Origin: a virus
Lineage: Duplodnaviria; Heunggongvirae; Uroviricota; Caudoviricetes
Direction: 5' to 3' (one strand)
DNA: 42,950 bases
Virus record (IMG/VR): IMGVR_UViG_2870479586_000005
This document shows positions 1,862-41,965 of the stretch, piece by piece (positions within the stretch are counted from its first letter, which is position 1; the number at the start of each line of letters is the position of its first letter). Both the position numbers and the translations under genes were made by a program. The notes under the pieces were generated by a model, which was not told the DNA's origin, did no database searches, and saw only the letters and a list, made by a program, of their open reading frames with translations.

Positions 1862-3496
1862 CCCGCCGCCGCTGGTTTATCAAACATCGCGCCACGATTG
1901 TACGAACTCGCAGCCTGTCTCAGTCCATCGAGCACCCCCGACGCTGCAGATTGTTGTATTGACTGCGGATCTGTCGCACCGACAATATTGATTTCGATTT
2001 TATTGTTTTGCTCCGGCGCAGGTGTCGAGACTGCCTGCTTCAACGTATCAATATTTAACGTCGACGAATCCAGTGCTGCAGGCGCGGTATTTTTATTTAC
2101 CATCCCGGATAATGGATTAACAAACGCGAGCATTGATTCTGCCTGAGATTTTGCCTGTTCTTGCCGTTCTGGATGCCGCATATTTTCGACAGCCTCTTCG
2201 GCTTTTGCCTTCGCAATATTATCAGCAGTCAATCCAGCGTTCGGTGAATATTTACCTCCCGAATCCATAAACTCTTGATATGCCCGATTATATTCGTCAT
2301 TATAAGTTTTCTGTTCTTCATCTGATTTTTCATCCGGAATAAGCCACTCCAGTTTCTTTACGACAGCCCATATAATCTTCCCGAATTTGACGCAACCTTC
2401 TCCAAAATTGACGATGCCATCCCACATTTTTTTCATATTTTCTGGTTTTACCCACTCAGTAATTGTGCTGACAAAACCACCCTGATTATCCTTAAACCAG
2501 GATGTAAATGTTTCACGTACTGAGTCAAACGTCGGCGCGAGTTCCCCCCGATTTTACCGAGTGTATCTGCAAGTCCCGACGTAATAGAGCCCCACAGATT
2601 TGTCACTGATACATGCGCACGCGCCGCCCCTTCCGCACCCTCTTTTGTTAACAAATTCGACTTTTGCGCGTCAGACATTGTCTGTTCCCAGCTTTTACCC
2701 GTCGCCTTCATATACGTCATGATCTTATTAGCCTCGCCCCCATGAGCTGGTCAGCGAGGCTCGCCGCTTGCTTCTCATCTTTCATTTCAGAGATGCGACG
2801 CATAACCTCATTAAACTGTTTTTCCCGATCCCAGCCAGCCATTCGTTTTTTCGTCAGGCCAATTTGAAATAACATGGGATTCAGGCTTTTTTCGTTTCCG
2901 ATTTCGCCGATTTTATTTGTAAGTTCTTCAGACAAATCCCCGATATTTTCGCCGTTCAGGCCCGCGGCTTTACCAATATTTTCCCACGCAGCGTATTTTT
3001 CGACGCCAACGCCGTAGGACTTCGCCAGACCGAGTTTTTCTGACGTCTCTGCATTCATTGCCAGCGAACCAGCTGCAGCACCGCCAATGAGCCCTGCCGC
3101 GCCAAGTGTCCCCCATTTGATACCCCGCCCCGTAGCCCTCACCGCACCTGCGGCGGCTCGTCCGCCCCATTTTGCAGCTCCTTTTGCGCGACCCGTCCAC
3201 TTCTCCAGCCGCTGTTTTTTAGCAAGTTGAGTATTCAGCGCCTCCTGGTCCTGCGTTGTCGCTTTTATCCGACGGTCCAGCTTTTGATACTGAGCAGATA
3301 AATCAGAAACGTCTTTACCTGCCAGTTTCATTGCTGCGATTTTGTCTTTTAATTTATCCTGACTTTTCGTTAATTTCCCGACAGTAGACGACGTCTGCCG
3401 AATCGCATCATTGAGTTCTGTTGTACCGCGACGAAACGACGGGTCTATTCGCCCACCGAATACAACCTGCGTTTTAAAGTTTTGAGAAATAGCCAT
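1858..3496 (-). CDS. tail tape measure protein (gpT-like), interrupted by two apparent 1-nt frameshifts
   Basis: Three consecutive minus-strand ORFs (2717-3496, 2448-2720, 1858-2436) with coiled-coil, Gly/Ala-rich tape-measure character; frames rejoin if one base is added in the C5 run at 2737-2741 and in the C6 run at 2544-2549. Confidence 0.7.
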
Positions 3497-31431: not shown

Positions 31432-31462
31432 CACCACCAGCGACGCCAATCATCTGGTGGTG
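31432..31462. promoter_or_regulatory. perfect 9-bp inverted repeat (candidate operator of the antirepressor gene)
   Basis: CACCACCAG (31432-31440), 13-bp spacer, CTGGTGGTG (31454-31462), immediately upstream of the antirepressor start codons. Confidence 0.45.
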
Positions 31463-31673
31463 AACTGTGCAGGGTTGGCGTAACCGGCTAAGTGAACCCG
31501 GCGCTTCCGCAGAAGCCCCCACACAGCCCACCATAATGCGAATGTGGCCGTGCCTAACACATAAAAAAACCGCTAACGCGGCTATGCGTCACTTAGATAT
31601 CCGGGACGCCAATCCCGGCAACCGATTTTGCGGCTGCGCGGAAACTATAGCCCCGGGCTTTTTCTAAGTCAAT

Positions 31674-32848: not shown

Positions 32849-33259
32849 TCACGTCCCTTTCTTTGCTATCGGAGTGATGGAACTCAGCAGCAGGCGACAG
32901 CGACCGGGCGCGCCAATGCGCTGTCCGGTTATCTTGTCGTAAGTTTCATGCGGTGAGGCACACCAGGTTGTCGCTGTTTCGTGGAGTTTCACTTGCCGCT
33001 CACCATTTCTGCGAATCGCGATCCCGATGTGCGTTTTACCCTTACATTTCACTGCTGGCGCTGCGGCTACGGATGCCTGACGGGCAGGCTGAGCTGGTGT
33101 TGAAAAATTGCCTGCTTTGGGTCTTGGTACAAAAACCGCACGAGTGCGCGCACGTGGCCCGGCGTTCATATTCCACAAAATGACGTCGAGATAGTTTTTA
33201 CCGTCGTCTATGTGTCCTTTGTCCGACGGGTACTCTAATTTGCCTGAAATGGTGGTCAT
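32849..33259 (-). CDS. hypothetical protein
   Basis: 136-aa ORF directly downstream of the helicase gene. Confidence 0.35.
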   Translation of the reverse strand: MTTISGKLEYPSDKGHIDDGKNYLDVILWNMNAGPRARTRAVFVPRPKAGNFSTPAQPARQASVAAAPAVKCKGKTHIGIAIRRNGERQVKLHETATTWCASPHETYDKITGQRIGAPGRCRLLLSSITPIAKKGT

Positions 33260-33297
33260 TGGTCTTTCCTCGGTTATTTCACGCTGGTCATGCGTGG

Positions 33298-35786: not shown

Positions 35787-35977
35787 CCGGCTTCATAGTC
35801 CGCATTGCTCAGCCCTTTGTCGCGCAACTCGACCTTCCTGGATTCATACTGCTCCCACACCGAAAGCGCGGCAGCCATACGCCCATCAAAAATAGGTTGG
35901 ATCTCTGCAACATGTGCCGGGCGCCCATTCAGGTGCCAGCCGTTACGCCAGGTAATGCGGTCAATATGTCTTAACAT
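35753..35977 (-). CDS. hypothetical protein
   Basis: 74-aa ORF between the YdaT-like and O-like genes. Confidence 0.3.
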   Translation of the reverse strand: MLRHIDRITWRNGWHLNGRPAHVAEIQPIFDGRMAAALSVWEQYESRKVELRDKGLSNADYEAGCRQIAEALEI

Positions 35978-36016
35978 CGGTCTTTCCTCGGTATAAGTTA
36001 AACGCTGGTCAGGCGC

Positions 36017-36493: not shown

Positions 36494-36552
36494 AGCGTCT
36501 CCTGTCGCTAAAAATTGATTACGCTTAATCAGATGTAATAAGCCGCCTTTTG

Positions 36553-36750
36553 CTAAGCTTTTTCATGTTTTGGAACATCGTAAAAAGTCGGGTCATATTT
36601 CAGTGCTCCATTAGTGATATGGTCGAGTCGAGCTGCTCGCTTTTCAGGAACTGTTGCCCCCCAACGAGTAACCGCCACTTGTGATATACCCAGCACCTTG
36701 GCTGTGGCTGTCTTTGAACCAAAAAAACTAATAACCGTCTCTGTTTTCAT
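36553..36750 (-). CDS. Cro/YdaS-like HTH regulator
   Basis: 65-aa ORF with an HTH (TATAKVLGISQVAVTRW); divergent from the repressor gene. Confidence 0.65.
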   Translation of the reverse strand: MKTETVISFFGSKTATAKVLGISQVAVTRWGATVPEKRAARLDHITNGALKYDPTFYDVPKHEKA

Positions 36751-36818
36751 AATTCCTCCGCGTAACTTTTGTTAGCAACATAAATACTAACGAAAGTTAT
36801 GTCAAGTTAACTTATATT
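36751..36818. promoter_or_regulatory. divergent promoter/operator region of the immunity switch
   Basis: 68-bp AT-rich spacer between divergent cro-like and repressor genes. Confidence 0.4.
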
Positions 36819-37232
36819 ATGAGGATGAAAAATTTGATGCTTAGCGACCGTTTATCTCAAAGACGCAAACAGCTTGGTCTAACCCAACAACAGCTTGCTG
36901 ATATGGTTGGAAGATCGAGTGTGAGCGTTTTTAAATGGGAAAGCGGACAAAATGAACCAAAGGGCCAGAACTTGTTGGCTTTGGCCAATGCACTCAAGTG
37001 TTCTGCCACATGGCTGCTTTTTGGTGACGAAGACCAGGCGCCAACTCCGGTAGACGAATTACCAACAGAGCTGGATTCACGTCAAAAAAGATTGTTAGAG
37101 TTATTTGATTCATTACCCGAGTCAGAAAAAGAAAAGCAACTAATTGAATTAGAAGATAAAGTTGAAAACTTTAATCGTTTATTTGAAGAGTTACTGGTTA
37201 CCAGAAAGAAACTAACCCCCACCAAAAAATAA
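36819..37232 (+). CDS. XRE-family HTH repressor (CI analogue lacking S24 peptidase domain)
   Basis: 137-aa ORF; HTH (LTQQQLADMVGRSSVSVFKWESG) then a coiled, acidic C-terminus; no Ser/Lys autoprotease motifs seen. Confidence 0.7.
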   Translation: MRMKNLMLSDRLSQRRKQLGLTQQQLADMVGRSSVSVFKWESGQNEPKGQNLLALANALKCSATWLLFGDEDQAPTPVDELPTELDSRQKRLLELFDSLPESEKEKQLIELEDKVENFNRLFEELLVTRKKLTPTKK

Positions 37233-37235
37233 AAT

Positions 37236-37270
37236 AAAGGCAATGTTTTCAATGCATTGCCTTTATTTTT
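37236..37270 (+). terminator. rho-independent terminator after the repressor gene
   Basis: AAAGGCAATG-9 nt loop-CATTGCCTTT followed by ATTTTT, starting 4 nt after the stop. Confidence 0.65.
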
Positions 37271-38178
37271 ACCCCAAATACTAACTTTTGTTATAAAACA
37301 TCTTGCACATAAAATTACCTTTAGTTATATTCATTCCATCAACAACGCTTACCCAGCGGCAGTTGTTCAGAAACACGTTCTGACAGCCGGAAAGACGGCA
37401 CCAAATTTTGCGCGTCGGCGCCAACACGGTGACAGAGGGAAAGACTTCACCGGCATATGGCACATGTGTCGAAGCGGTCTGGATGGAAGCGGAGCCTTAA
37501 CGCGTTGTCTCCATAGCAGGTAGCCGGAATGTGCAAGCCACAGCCAGGTATGAGCGATTGATTCACCATCAAGGCGATACGGTGTGACCACCAGGGAAGA
37601 GTCCTGGCTACAACACGAGAGCGCACTTCATCGACTCAACTTTGAGCTTTGTCGTTAAATTTTGAAATGGCGGAGTGCGCTCCCGGTTGTGGTGAACAGG
37701 TGTTTAACGGGAACTCCCTGCCCGTTACCCGGTTCGATTCCGGGCGCCCATCATCAATTTGCTGTGTTTAGTCTTTGCCCAGTCCGCACGATGGGCCATT
37801 TTTTCACACAGCCAGGTTTTATCGCTGTGCCTGAGTCCCCAACAGGAGAGGCCAAACCCGCAGCGTGACACCAGGGAAAGACCGGAGGAAGTACCACGCC
37901 TGACCAGCGTTGACCATGAGCCTGACCAGCTCAAAACAGGAAAGACCAGCCCTGTACGGTCGTAATGGAAACATAACGACGCCGGAAACGTAACCGGCAC
38001 CCTTTAGATAGCAAAAGACCCGCACAAGGCGGGCCAGTTACCCCGAACGGCGACCAAACCATTCGGATTTATCACAAGTGACCAAACTTGTGATGAGGAA
38101 AGACCAACGACACTGACGCTATGGAAGCTGATCAATATTCGCTGATCGGCTCTGAGTATACATTACCAAGGAGTCGCT

Positions 38179-38499
38179 ATGGAAGCGCGCACCATCCCAG
38201 TAACACTCTTTATTCATTATGCAACTTCAACTTTCAGCCACGAAAAGCTGCTTGTTGCGACGGTTGATATGTCAAAAAATTTTCCAGACAGGTACATCCT
38301 TCTGGAAAGCCGCGAAATTGAAATTACCGTCAACCAGCCCCAGCCAATCGACATCATCGGTTTACAGGTCGAGCAGCTGCATGAGCAAAAACAGAAAACA
38401 GCCGCCGACGCCCAACAGCGTATTGCTGCTATCGATGACGAAATCCAGCAGTTACTTTGCATCGAATACACGCCAGATACCGATGAAATCCCCTACTAA
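38179..38499 (+). CDS. hypothetical early-left protein
   Basis: 106-aa ORF with AAGGAG Shine-Dalgarno. Confidence 0.4.
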   Translation: MEARTIPVTLFIHYATSTFSHEKLLVATVDMSKNFPDRYILLESREIEITVNQPQPIDIIGLQVEQLHEQKQKTAADAQQRIAAIDDEIQQLLCIEYTPDTDEIPY

Positions 38500-38529
38500 A
38501 GACCACTGACCTGTAATGAGGAAAGACCA

Positions 38530-38859
38530 ATGACCATTTTTAACGGCTTGTTAGAAGCGAAAAAAGGCGCGCTCAAAAACGGTGCGATCCCGGCGCTGGC
38601 CATCGCCATCGACGCCCCTAACAAAAAAGTTGCCGAGAACATCATCATCGGCAAATTGTGGGAAGCCTACCCTGACCACGGCGACAACTATTTCAAACCT
38701 AAAATCTGGGAGGATGCCCCAGGCCAACCGCGCCCAGGCGTCGGTGAGTTTGATGAGACGTTTGCCACAGAACACAGTTTTGATGGCGAAAAATGGGTAG
38801 TTAACCCCCCGCTGATTCAGATAGCGGTTCAGCAGATATCGCACAGGTTAACGACCTGA
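38530..38859 (+). CDS. hypothetical early-left protein
   Basis: 109-aa ORF; ATG directly follows the repeated TAATGAGGAAAGACCA initiation module. Confidence 0.45.
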   Translation: MTIFNGLLEAKKGALKNGAIPALAIAIDAPNKKVAENIIIGKLWEAYPDHGDNYFKPKIWEDAPGQPRPGVGEFDETFATEHSFDGEKWVVNPPLIQIAVQQISHRLTT

Positions 38860-40745
38860 TGAAACTGCCTGCTCGTGAACGCTTCGCCGCCGTCCTGCTG
38901 TTCAGCCACGACGCCAACGAAGTCGACAGTGAATTGCTTGCGCAGACGCGTGAATACCTGGAGATGCTCGACAACAGTGATACTAACAGTGAGGATGAGG
39001 TTGACGCGTTTAACCGCATCGTCCTCGATGCCATGGTAGCGTGTAAGCCCATTGAGTACATGCATATTGCTGGATTGAATAATCTGGTACATGCAATTTT
39101 GGCAAGTTGCGATACCCAGGAACAAAACCCGACCAGTTGGACTATCTCCAAATTTATAAAAAAATGGGTAGAGAATCCCGGTAAACGCGATGAAATGCTG
39201 CCGGAGGTAAAACCACAAACAGCATCCGCACGTCCTTACCAACAGACTCACGCCACACTGGATCGTGAAATTGCCTGCGCCCTGTTACCTGTTGCCCCGG
39301 AAAAAATCACCCCCAGCATCCTGAAAGCGGCAGACGAAATAATCAGTCAGGACAGGGAAGATTTTAAACGCTGGTCAATGGCCTTGCGCACAACGGATCA
39401 GATCCTTGCCTATGACCGCGCATCAGTATTCGGTGTTATTCAGAGCGCCCCCGCAAAAGACACGTACCACTTCCCACAATCCCTGCGCAGTCACATCGAC
39501 AACTGGCTGCAAGCTAACGGGCAGCGTGATGCAAATGCTGTTGAAGAGAAGCCAAAGGAAGCAGCACCAAAGGATGATGTAAAAGTCACCAACCACGGCG
39601 GCGGACGATTCTCAATTGATGGGATGATGTCAGAAACATCCTCAAATCAGGGCGAAAAAAGCGAAGCAGCAAATGCTGGAGAACGTAGTTTGCAGCAGTT
39701 GCGTGAGCAGTTTGTCACGCCCCGCCATGTGTATGGCGTACCAGAAAATAACGCCGTATCACAGCGGGAATCTGTAACTGTTATCCTGGAAGAAGAGACT
39801 CCTCCACAAGAAAAACTTAGCGAGCAGGTAAAGGAGCCTGTGCAGAACGTTGACGCGCTGGTTGAGCGGATCCATACCGAAGAGCACCAGCGGCAGAATG
39901 CAATCTCAGCTATCGAAACGGAGTTAAATGACTCCAGTGATACGGATAACCTGGCATTGTGGAAGAACGTATTCAAAACCGATGAGCGTTTCACCAAAGC
40001 TTTCTCTCAGAATGGCGGCGGCACATCCATCAACGGTACTTATATAGCGATGAAAGCGACTCGCGAATTTGGGCCGTTTGGTATTGGCTGGGGTGTAGAG
40101 GTGGTGGAAGAGCGTTTTGATAAAGGCGCACCGATAGTTCGCAAAAAACAGGTTGGTGAAAAAATAGAATGGGATCTGATTCAAGACGGAGTTGGCGGGT
40201 ACCTATGTGAAATGCACCACACCATGAAAGTTAGAGTCTGGTACATATTGAATGGGGTGCGCGGTGAGTCCGAGGCTTACGGATGCACACCTTATATCTA
40301 CGACACTAAATACGGACCAACAAGCGACGGCGAAGCGCCGAAGAAATCCTGGACGGATGCTGTTAAGAAAGCGCTATCCCCTCTCGGATTCAGCGCCGAT
40401 ATTTTCATGGGCCTGTACGACAATCCGGAATACCGCCAGAGGAATAAAGCTGAGTTTGATATCAAGAATGCCAGCGAAAATGCGGAAGATGCTACCCGTC
40501 TGCGTAAGGAACTGGATGAGAAGCTTATCAACGTTGCCAATACGCTGGCCGCCGCGGTAACCGCCAACGAAGTAAACAAGGTATTTGGCCTCATCGCCCG
40601 CGAAGTGGATGTACACCGAAAAGCAGCAGAAGCCAAAGGCGATAAAGAATATTCATCGTATCTGGGATCGCGCCTGCGCCGTATCACCGACATCAAAACT
40701 GAACGCCTCGCCGCCCTCACCGCTGCACAGGAGCAAACCGCATGA
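38859..40745 (+). CDS. large early protein, possible single-strand annealing recombinase (Erf/Rad52-like C-terminal region)
   Basis: 628-aa ORF; C-terminal KKSWTDAVKKALSPLGFSADIFMGLYDNPEY loosely recalls the Erf-family conserved segment; upstream of a Gp157-like gene. Confidence 0.35.
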   Translation: MKLPARERFAAVLLFSHDANEVDSELLAQTREYLEMLDNSDTNSEDEVDAFNRIVLDAMVACKPIEYMHIAGLNNLVHAILASCDTQEQNPTSWTISKFIKKWVENPGKRDEMLPEVKPQTASARPYQQTHATLDREIACALLPVAPEKITPSILKAADEIISQDREDFKRWSMALRTTDQILAYDRASVFGVIQSAPAKDTYHFPQSLRSHIDNWLQANGQRDANAVEEKPKEAAPKDDVKVTNHGGGRFSIDGMMSETSSNQGEKSEAANAGERSLQQLREQFVTPRHVYGVPENNAVSQRESVTVILEEETPPQEKLSEQVKEPVQNVDALVERIHTEEHQRQNAISAIETELNDSSDTDNLALWKNVFKTDERFTKAFSQNGGGTSINGTYIAMKATREFGPFGIGWGVEVVEERFDKGAPIVRKKQVGEKIEWDLIQDGVGGYLCEMHHTMKVRVWYILNGVRGESEAYGCTPYIYDTKYGPTSDGEAPKKSWTDAVKKALSPLGFSADIFMGLYDNPEYRQRNKAEFDIKNASENAEDATRLRKELDEKLINVANTLAAAVTANEVNKVFGLIAREVDVHRKAAEAKGDKEYSSYLGSRLRRITDIKTERLAALTAAQEQTA

Positions 40746-41471: not shown

Positions 41472-41701
41472 ATTACGCCTAATCAGAAATAAAAACTCAC
41501 CATCGCTAGCATTGCGATTCACCAGTAACCGGAGGATCACAATGCTGCGATGGCAACCGGGAGCAACTCTGCTCTCCGCATTTGATATCAAAATTGGCCG
41601 ACTGTCGGCCAGCGTCAGGAAACAGGCTGTGACCGAGTCTGATATTGCCCGTGCCTGCAAGGCGGCAGATGACGCAATAAGCTACATAATGAGGAAAGAC
41701 C

Positions 41702-41965
41702 ATGAGAAGCGATCACGACATAATCACCAGAGAAGAAATGGTCGAGCTGACGGGAAGCCCACTTAAATCAAAGCAATGTGAGGCTCTTCGCCGGGCTGGA
41801 ATTTTCTTCATGGAAAGGGCTGACGGGCACCCAAAAACAACCTGGGGCCATTTCATGAACCCAATAAAATTTCGCAATTTACAGGAGGTGACGACGCGAA
41901 AAGATGATGAACCTGATTTTGGAGCAATATTTAATGGCCGGAAAGAGAAAGAACCCAGCAGATAA
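41702..41965 (+). CDS. DUF4224-like small protein (possible excision/directionality factor)
   Basis: 87-aa ORF immediately upstream of the integrase; ATG follows the repeated initiation module. Confidence 0.45.
   Translation: MRSDHDIITREEMVELTGSPLKSKQCEALRRAGIFFMERADGHPKTTWGHFMNPIKFRNLQEVTTRKDDEPDFGAIFNGRKEKEPSR

Follow-up and report, generated by a model that had tools for sequence, protein, structure and literature searches.

In the antisense immunity systems of phages P1/P7 and P4, i.e., with the C4 and CI RNAs of the RF01695 clan, structured loops present bases that are complementary to targets which are repeated within the early transcript. The start-associated sequences (SAS) of Cluster K mycobacteriophages, along with an extended form (ESAS), represent another sort of repeated early element, one whose function is unknown and whose binder, whether phage RNA or protein, was left open by those describing it (Pope et al. 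2011, PMC3203893). The small RNA RprA, as found in E. coli, exists in vivo also as a processed 3' form of 47 nucleotides (nt), RprAproc, which is active alone (PMC9262595). Addressed here is a seemingly empty piece of prophage DNA that resembles each of these in part, that is, positions 37270-38178 of the Caudoviricetes sequence IMGVR_UViG_2870479586_000005. The latter, at its full length of 42,950 nt, is described here as the 'window', and the piece as the 'interval'.

The window is an E. coli prophage, with positions 36500-39000 being 99.9% identical to several complete genomes. The interval, as bounded by the terminator of a repressor gene and by the first plus-strand gene (38179-38499; phrog_2479), appears on balance to be the untranslated control region of the early-left operon, that is, a block of non-coding RNA genes rather than a decayed gene. 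From its sequence it reads as a mosaic of RNA modules found on both strands, with about half of it consisting of RNA cassettes. Two of these modules, a 163-nt core RNA and an antisense small RNA, match no described family so far as the searches below indicate, and a third is an RprA look-alike.

Mechanically, the interval does hold open reading frames (ORFs) of 60-91 amino acids (aa), i.e., 37257-37523 (with a TTG start), 37662-37868 and 37759-37965, plus 37725-38000 and 37819-38025 on the minus strand. These match no PHROG, with flanking genes doing so at E values of 1e-42 to 1e-86, and they match no Pfam family. RefSeq annotates no gene within the interval in the one near-identical genome examined, and relatives differ by insertions and deletions (indels) not divisible by three, breaking the frames of the longer ORFs. 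A preliminary description of this DNA, which had seen no credible ORF of 60 aa or more, was thus correct. Three readings had been put forward there, i.e., regulatory leader, small-RNA locus and decayed gene, and of these it is the last that is not supported. The leader reading gains support because operator copies and a promoter open the interval and because conservation begins at the predicted transcription start; the small-RNA reading gains it from several structured RNA modules that display covariation. The arrangement of motifs, too, is kept in dozens of relatives, with the neighbouring protein down to 40% identity. Long 'empty' spacers beside prophage repressors should not be taken for decayed genes during annotation.

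Just ahead of the interval is a terminator hairpin following the repressor gene (37231-37269), a 15-nt inverted repeat that is 100% complementary and that is flanked by an A-run and, at its opposite side, by a T-run. Copies of the left operator (OL) come next (37276-37294, plus strand), i.e., TAACTTTTGTTA, AAATACTAAC....GTTAT, consisting of direct repeats plus an inverted repeat. These repeat the operators found between the cro and repressor genes at 36763-36800, with the words TAACTTTTGTTA and AAATACTAACGAAAGTTAT from that intergenic region both recurring. A promoter scan then identifies a sigma-70 promoter like that of early-left operons (PL-like; 37303-37331, plus strand), with a -35 element of TTGCAC/TGCACA, a -10 of TATATT and a predicted start at about 37338-37340. 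Upon alignment with five relatives, which possess different promoters and operators, conservation begins abruptly at CATCAAC (37337-37343), roughly 6-8 nt past the -10. Such a pattern would be expected were it the transcript that is conserved.

The 5' portion of this predicted leader consists, on the plus strand, of a series of small hairpins. That at 37341-37367 (AACAAC ... GUUGUU), as read from the sequence, is AACGAC/GUUGUU in relatives, its pairing being preserved via G·U. The hairpin H1 (37381-37399) is UGACA plus GCCG-GAAAGA-CGGC, and it includes a copy of the motif GGAAAGAC at 37389; its stems in relatives are GCCCG/CGGGC, UCUG/CAGG and AUUCG/CGAAU, around an identical loop. With GCGC-GUCG-GCGC (37410-37421), similarly, relatives instead display UUCGG-GUCG-CCGAA, the stem differing and the loop staying constant. 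The hairpin H2 (37430-37448) is UGACA plus GAGG-GAAAGA-CUUC, with a GGAAAGAC copy at 37438, and is UGCGG-GAAAGA-CUGCA or CCGCA in relatives. Stems of the 5' leader, that is, have been swapped for other complementary stems while loops remain unchanged, so that GGAAAGAC at 37389 and 37438 is the closing pair plus loop of conserved hairpins. H1 is also a site of gene insertion, with three relatives (L003, at 2381-2885; L004, at 2381-3060; and L226) carrying small genes there, of 74-124 aa. Such insertions come with an antisense ORF or a terminator, and the leader in this sense is a gene-insertion hotspot.

Over the window as a whole GGAAAGAC is found in 10 copies versus 1.18 expected, and TGACCAGC in 6 versus 1.05, with neither count reached in any of 100 shuffles. 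Enrichment of the former had been claimed in the preliminary description, along with a cluster of TGACCA elements, and both are seen: the four copies that it listed lie at 37438, 37875, 37939 and 38097, at most 8 nt from where they had been placed, and the TGACCA elements are at 37901, 37911 and 37923. A fifth copy within the interval, at 37389, was missed, and beyond the reach of that description was the finding that these motifs occupy hairpin loops and ribosome-binding sites. All 10 copies are found between 33262 and 42191, i.e., within the early region, and on whichever strand is the coding strand of the local ORFs.

The copy at 37875 is part of GUGACA plus a weak stem containing GGAAAGACC (37865-37885, plus strand), a unit that is like H1 and also like helix P5 of the core RNA (below), that lies 3' of a terminator, and which is conserved in L001 and L054. 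Two plus-strand hairpins with perfect stems and CUGACCA loops follow, ACGC-CUGACCA-GCGU (37896-37910) and GAGC-CUGACCA-GCUC (37918-37932). Their counterparts in relatives are GAGC-AUGACCA-GCUC and GGGC-(C/A)U(G/A)ACCA-GCCC, and relatives have extra UGACCA-loop hairpins as well, with stems that vary (GAGC, GGGC, ACGC) and loops that are constant. A further copy of GGAAAGACC (37939-37947, plus strand) has no start codon after it. Lastly, GAGGAAAGACCAAC (38095-38108, plus strand) is a copy of the start-associated motif that is the exact complement of the 5' part of the small RNA. In most relatives AUG comes next, opening a variable upstream ORF of 34-48 aa, and in the window the corresponding codon is ACG. 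The window's own upstream ORF (38121-38267), for which a duplicated 'GCTATGGAAGC' provides a different AUG, runs out of frame into the beginning of the first early-left gene.

The same motif system is seen beyond the interval, directly at the starts of at least four early genes that are located on both sides of the immunity region. On the plus strand these are an exonuclease-like gene (GAGGAAAGACCAAUG, 38518-38532, with start at 38530) and a small gene upstream of the integrase gene (GAGGAAAGACCAUG, 41691-41704, with start at 41702), both preceded by the motif without a hairpin. On the minus strand, two early-right genes are preceded by a composite, that is, by a (C/A)UGACCA-loop hairpin, then 8-11 nt, then GAGGAAAGACC, then 1 nt and then AUG. 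For the gene of 74 aa (start at 35977; phrog_2465), AGCGC-CUGACCA-GCGUU (36000-36016) is separated by 11 nt from GAGGAAAGACCGAUG, together spanning 35975-36016. For that of 136 aa (start at 33259; phrog_5148), CACGC-AUGACCA-GCGUG (33279-33295) is separated by 8 nt from GAGGAAAGACCAAUG, together spanning 33257-33295. Relatives likewise confine the motif to early genes, in one orientation. Across 50 viral loci that have the small RNA there are 396 copies of GGAAAGACC (8.0 per 10 kilobases, kb), 215 of them followed by ATG within 0-2 nt, versus 3 copies (0.03 per 10 kb) in 114 loci without this RNA.

The likeness to SAS and ESAS (PMC3203893) is considerable. In both cases a short, asymmetric motif with a Shine-Dalgarno core lies a few nt before many start codons, those of non-structural (here, early) genes, in one orientation and within one phage group. 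With ESAS, furthermore, an inverted repeat lies ahead of a subset of copies, as here do the hairpins at 36000-36016 and 33279-33295, 8-11 nt upstream. This is an analogy, however, and not shared descent, with homology ruled out given that the consensus differs, i.e., GGGATAGGAGCCC in the mycobacteriophages versus GAGGAAAGACC here, and the host and phage lineage being unrelated. Here, in addition, several copies lie in an untranslated leader where they lack start codons, and the phage also encodes an RNA that is complementary to the motif.

That RNA, of about 140 nt, would be transcribed convergently with the leader (38008-38148, minus strand), and its existence as a predicted transcript, based upon terminator, fold and covariation, we consider to be quite likely. 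Its 5' hairpin includes the first UUGGUC, GAUCAGYG pairing with CRUUGGUC and showing a U-A to C-G exchange among 15 distinct variants. There is an exposed stretch, UUUCCUC, then hairpin 1 with loop UUGGUC (38094-38071), then hairpin 2 with loop UUUGGUCG (38066-38043; UUUGGUC(G/A) among variants) and, as identified by a terminator scan, a strong intrinsic terminator consisting of a stem (38035-38017) and then a U-run, all on the minus strand. The -10 element, TATACT (38155-38160, minus strand), is TATACT or TATAAT in 23 of 23 distinct protein-anchored relatives, at the corresponding position to within 7 nt, and in several of these it has been improved to consensus while adjoining bases changed. 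A first set of small RNAs had been retrieved by means of a 21-mer containing this same -10, and relatives hence were re-collected via the neighbouring protein as well as with an alignment-based metagenome scan; locus searching with a single protein yielded close relatives only.

Folding of the window's copy of the small RNA gives -63.7 kcal/mol (z = -6.7), versus -49.6 kcal/mol (z = -5.0) for the plus strand. Among 15 variants, 14 have the better fold on the minus strand (means of -47.1 versus -41.8 kcal/mol), with more G·U pairs. The strand of the small RNA is taken to be minus because of these wobble pairs, that is, G·U is found there at positions where the plus strand would have a mismatch, A·C or C·A. 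Compensatory changes are found by RNAalifold at 13 pairs. No Rfam match to the minus-strand RNA exceeds 19.4 bits in the window, and with 12 related loci included none reaches a gathering score. The non-coding block overall is near-invariant, with the adjacent protein down to 40% identity.

As the small RNA runs antisense across 38095-38108, where there is a motif copy, it carries GGUCUUUCCUC, the complement of GAGGAAAGACC. It carries UUGGUC as well, three times and twice in loops, which is complementary to the GACCA of both GACCAA and UGACCA. Also complementary to it are the UGACCA loops along with the GAAAGA loops of H1, H2 and the unit at 37875. Among start sites, the predicted duplex with that of the exonuclease-like gene (38530) is strongest, at -44.9 kcal/mol the best of 52 ORF starts, with the site resembling the cis target over about 24 nt. 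Those with the gene before integrase (41702), the 136-aa gene (33259) and the 74-aa gene (35977) are predicted at -40.2, -38.7 and -30.4 kcal/mol, respectively, versus a mean of -27.2 kcal/mol (standard deviation, 6.4) over 52 control ORF starts.

Read together, GGAAAGACC and TGACCA may be start-associated elements that function at the RNA level and whose complements are displayed by the antisense small RNA, with GGUCUUUCC plus the UUGGUC loops as its putative pairing seed. In cis the small RNA would pair ahead of the first early-left gene, within its 5' untranslated region. In trans it would pair with ribosome-binding sites, i.e., those of the exonuclease-like gene, of the gene before integrase and of the two early-right genes, and it could thereby lower or time the translation of these targets. 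Motif copies in the PL leader which have no start codon might then serve as decoys, competing for the small RNA once PL fires, and the early-left genes would be reached only via read-through of a terminator that ends at 37805. Whether there is action in trans upon the start-associated motif we see as finely balanced, leaning a little toward doubt. More tentative still is the reading as a whole, that is, of the small RNA as a phage-specific 'anti-ribosome-binding-site' directed at a motif shared by both early operons and titrated by the leader, with the core separately being a new functional class of RNA (antiterminator, ribozyme or anti-defence decoy). If true, this would be the first mechanistic reading of start-associated sequences, with the small RNA a candidate partner for such a motif, and with the question of the binder, open since 2011, now directly testable in E. 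coli.

As with C4 of P1/P7 and CI of P4, then, a phage small RNA is complementary to repeated targets in early transcripts. No C4-clan match is found in 37200-38250 at E of 10 or less. The RNA here differs as well in being convergent and in having its own predicted promoter rather than being cut out of the leader, and in having ribosome-binding sites as its putative targets, those of several genes spread over two operons.

A number of points weigh against the above reading. GAGGAAAGACC includes a strong Shine-Dalgarno sequence, which possibly is the sole reason for its conservation. Co-occurrence of motif and small RNA is confounded by shared ancestry, loci with both representing one prophage family; the most distant protein relatives (24-35% identity) have neither. 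The motif does not vary among the relatives possessing it, so no co-variation of seed and target is observable, and any RNA that is antisense to one copy of the motif necessarily is complementary to all. Duplex energies ignore intramolecular structure, and the first UUGGUC is predicted to be within a stem. The -35 of the minus-strand promoter is weak. Retrieval using an exact 19-mer and 21-mer biases apparent invariance, if partly offset by a second anchor and by protein-anchored loci. The core is absent from 24 of 49 loci of the window's prophage family and so is not essential to the leader. Finally, promoters, RNA ends and processing all are predictions, with expression, processing and regulatory action of the interval's RNAs being what we infer given their sequence, structure, conservation and distribution.

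The core RNA itself (37448-37610, plus strand) matches a covariance model, R1, at 132.8 bits (E = 4e-44). It consists of the helices P1 and P2, a closing helix, P4 and P5, the last with the loop GAAGAG, and its architecture is one of conserved single-stranded blocks alternating with helices that change in a compensatory manner. Over 73 distinct model-aligned copies, 96.9% of cells are paired and 14 pairs are compensatory, involving 176 cells, which is equalled by 0 of 500 shuffles. Sliding the 3' partner by 1-3 columns, as a control, leaves only 27-48% paired. With 25 representatives the figures are 96.8% of cells paired and 11 pairs with double changes. A pseudoknot, PK2, joins the CACC of the P4 loop with a downstream GGUG, a C-G to A-U exchange occurring in 9 sequences and that pair never being broken. 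A second, PK1, between the P1 loop GCACAU and AUGUGC, is invariant in the alignment and so is only possible. In five variant cores (L012, L013, L036, L045 and L052) an insertion of about 45 nt (CAGCCCAGACGATATCTGAGTGGCT…GCCGGTGGAATCCCGGC) replaces P5, with scores still of 119-125 bits. No Rfam family is matched by the core at gathering score or at E of 10 or less, as searched with the window plus 12 related loci, and a literature search using words of the core sequence turned up only unrelated papers.

The core is found in over 170 retrieved phage and prophage loci, with viral retrieval by exact 19-mer supplying at least 120 viral stretches. Among complete E. coli genomes, 669 of 5426 (about 12%) have it, in 477 chromosomal and 206 plasmid places, the plasmids probably being P1-like, and no feature is annotated under it in 40 E. 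coli records listed. A second, independent anchor gave 23 hits in species genomes, all Enterobacterales bar one 1.7-kb contig that is labelled Bacillota. That contig (L191; JAIIAN010000430.1, 1753 nt, from a 'Bacillota' metagenome-assembled genome) carries a full-score core of 162.5 bits and probably is mis-binned. Two other sequences, of 'Stenotrophomonas phage' BUCT708/709 (L001; OM816834/OM816835), have the leader in full (72% identity, with 91% of the query covered), with neighbour gene order that of enterobacterial prophages; the core otherwise being limited to Enterobacterales, their stated Stenotrophomonas host may deserve a check.

According to distant BLAST matches, what unrelated phages have in common with this region is only the core stretch, each time within unannotated DNA; these phages are the ε15-like SPN1S, PAT1 and Tyrion, the P1-like D6 and SJ46, and SopranoGao. 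The contexts of the core can be described by group. Within the window's prophage family it follows PL. A second set of loci (a cluster of 69 repressor genes) has an unrelated, LexA-like repressor, and in the four of these loci that were examined the order is repressor, core and early-left genes, with the core 100-400 nt after the repressor gene and the early-left genes next on the same strand. In ε15-like phages (Uetakevirus) it is found between portal and terminase genes, and in two viral contigs with a D6-like core it is just ahead of an ORF for a DnaB-like (Ban-type) helicase. Clustering of ORFs around 150 copies revealed no partner protein, i.e., no family common to the context types, only group-typical neighbours. 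The core, that is, represents a covariation-supported and unannotated RNA of E. coli genomes, of probably P1-like plasmids and of ε15-like Salmonella phages, and with this a new target for RNA biology.

Beyond the core, arrays vary. Cassette 1 (37611-37689, plus strand) forms a long hairpin whose arms, CAAC-ACGAGAGCGCACU ... AGUGCGCUCCCG-GUUG, are conserved and whose interior varies, with these arms surrounding differing interiors in 82 of 135 distinct arrays. Of the same 135 arrays, 24 have a genuine tRNA-Arg(UCU) and at least 39 an RprA-like terminal module. Cassette 2 (37688-37756, plus strand) is closed by GUGGUG ... CAUCAU and contains a T-arm-like hairpin, CCCGGUUCGAUUCCGGG (37728-37744). 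It was considered as a tRNA and rejected, ARAGORN finding no tRNA or tmRNA genes and Rfam scoring it as tRNA-Sec at 19.3 bits versus a gathering score of 47; other phages have a real tRNA-Arg(UCU) at this place. The window and the 12 related loci provide no Rfam match to the cassettes at gathering score, nor a credible one at E of 10 or less. Interiors of cassettes in L005, L102 and L071 look like fragments of cellular RNAs, including T-arm-like hairpins, and one stretch from L071 (AGCTAGATGGTGAGGTAATGGCTCACCATGGCGACGA, about 250 to 300 nt past the core) that looks 16S-rRNA-like.

The array ends with an RprA-3'-like module (37757-37805, plus strand), i.e., UUGCUGUGUUUAGUCUUUGCCC plus an intrinsic terminator with its stem at 37777-37796 and U-run at 37799-37805, as identified by terminator scan and Rfam. 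With 37696-37806, RprA (RF00034) scores 37.4 bits (E = 0.012), versus a gathering score of 70, which by the Rfam threshold places it outside RprA. The 5' two thirds of RprA contain the region that pairs with rpoS, and this is where the two differ: alignment columns 1-58, which are the 5' and central RprA that pair with rpoS, csgD and narP, show no meaningful conservation. What does align is the last approximately 47 nt of K-12 rprA, TGCTGTGT.TAGTCTT.GCCC being invariant in all four sequences and the terminator hairpin and U-run nearly identical to those of rprA. The likeness, that is, is to the processed 3' form, UGCUGUGU.UAGUCUU.GCCC and terminator included, with the module here instead forming the 3' end of a long phage leader transcript. 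A literature search on RprA and phage small RNAs returned nothing specific. By default PL would give a structured RNA, about 470 nt long, that stops at the 37805 terminator and whose 3' end resembles processed RprA.

All of the relatives examined have the RprA-like module, core-less ones among them. In the shortest leaders examined (L197, L199 and L222), of about 190 nt, the 5' hairpins are joined directly to it, and the segments in between therefore are optional cargo. In temperate phages the first early transcript appears to finish in a copy of RprA's active 3' portion, a look-alike that suggests phage interference with the host's small-RNA network upon induction or infection. Following this terminator in L197, L209, L273 and others are the hairpins CUUCAGU-GAAAA-CUGAAG and CCCUC-GAAAA/GAAGA-GAGGG, the latter in the stem and loop format of lambda boxB. 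Relatives with those two hairpins are without the window's sequence at 37806-37860, and the window is without such a hairpin.

Could the interval hide one or more small protein-coding genes, e.g., 38121-38267 or the ORFs of 88-91 aa? Mechanical ORFs do exist, and in most relatives there is a same-frame upstream ORF (…LIGSEYT..RSRYGS…) with the start-associated motif ahead of it; GenBank annotates a 38-aa ORF in phage BUCT708. That upstream ORF, however, lacks an ATG in 4 loci and ranges over 34-48 aa, with longer upstream extensions in some loci, and its start in the window has no ribosome-binding site. Given also the absence of PHROG matches to any of the ORFs, of a RefSeq call in the near-identical genome, and the breaking of the longer ORFs by indels, hidden genes strike us as extremely improbable. 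Another alternative is that the motifs are only strong ribosome-binding sites or module-boundary sequences, with no RNA-RNA regulation. Leader copies that lack start codons would then be relics of deleted or exchanged small genes, and the hairpins of the opposite strand would be structures of a 5' untranslated region or a bidirectional terminator. This would fit with the ATG that follows 215 of 396 motif copies, with small genes being inserted at exactly such units in L003, L004 and L226, with the 38097 copy opening an upstream ORF in most relatives (ACG in the window) and with the U-runs found on both sides of some terminator variants. It does not fit so well with start-codon-less copies and hairpins being conserved via compensatory stem changes where relatives' proteins are 40% identical, with G·U asymmetry that favours the minus strand in 14 of 15 variants, or with a minus-strand -10 in 23 of 23 relatives that has no role on the plus strand. 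We view this alternative as unlikely.

Two further alternatives invoke antitermination. The leader, i.e., its constant 5' hairpins or the 163-nt core, could work in cis as a processive antiterminator, like the put RNA of HK022, allowing polymerase from PL to pass both the 37805 terminator and the 38017-38035 hairpin into the early-left genes, and this would be compatible with the reading favoured above. Like putL/putR of HK022 and putL of HK639, the core is a structured RNA just downstream of an early promoter and ahead of terminators, with no N-like protein detected. That place is common to two prophage groups with unrelated repressors, is the same as for put RNAs in HK022 and HK639 (PMC9378689; genome annotation), and is separated from the first gene by at least one strong intrinsic terminator with no sigma-70-like promoter found after it. 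Nevertheless, put RNAs are of about 70 nt with two stem-loops, versus 163 nt with pseudoknots, and there is no similarity in sequence or structure: model R1 finds no match in HK022 or HK639, and Smith-Waterman scores versus the putL leader of HK639 stay within the range of shuffled sequence. The core, moreover, is optional, missing in half of the window's family with terminators still there; in L031, L044 and L087 a terminator-like hairpin comes directly after the core, with no array; and in ε15-like phages the core lies between terminase and portal genes. We regard a put-type role as improbable, be it as a rival or as an addition. The GAAAGA/GAAGA- and UGACCA-loop hairpins might instead be nut- or boxB-like sites for an antitermination protein of the N type. 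Lambda boxB loops are GAAGA/GAAAA, and the stems here, of 4-5 bp, with purine-rich loops are similar, are found downstream of both early promoters, and are joined in relatives by CCCUC-GAAAA-GAGGG just past the terminator. Unlike with lambda nut (boxA plus boxB), however, no boxA (YGCTCTTWA, up to 1 mismatch) is found in the leader at 37339-38178, there is no N-like gene, with the first early-left ORFs (38179 and 38530) lacking a Pfam match and the product of 38179-38499 not arginine-rich, and most motif copies abut start codons at ribosome-binding distance. A nut-type reading thus is very unlikely.

Among the surrounding genes, Pfam searching identifies a P22_Cro-like gene (36553-36750, minus strand) which diverges across the operator region from an HTH_3 repressor gene (36819-37232, plus strand). 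Beyond the former on the minus strand are a YdaT-like gene, a replication initiator and a DnaB-like helicase, and downstream on the plus strand are Gp157-family and integrase genes. At about 38805, within 38530-40745, the window has a C6 homopolymer versus C7 in the near-identical NZ_CP098214, so that what in relatives is an 'exonuclease family' gene of 738 aa is here broken into two ORFs, of 109 and 628 aa; this is a frameshift, a sequencing error or slippage. Elsewhere in the window (31453-31650, minus strand) Rfam identifies a complete antisense immunity locus of the P1/P7 type, with C4 at 74.5 bits (the C4 RNA proper at 31453-31538, minus strand), IsrK at 80.4 and the a1/b1 target at 52.9, which suggests that this prophage has an antirepressor control module as well.

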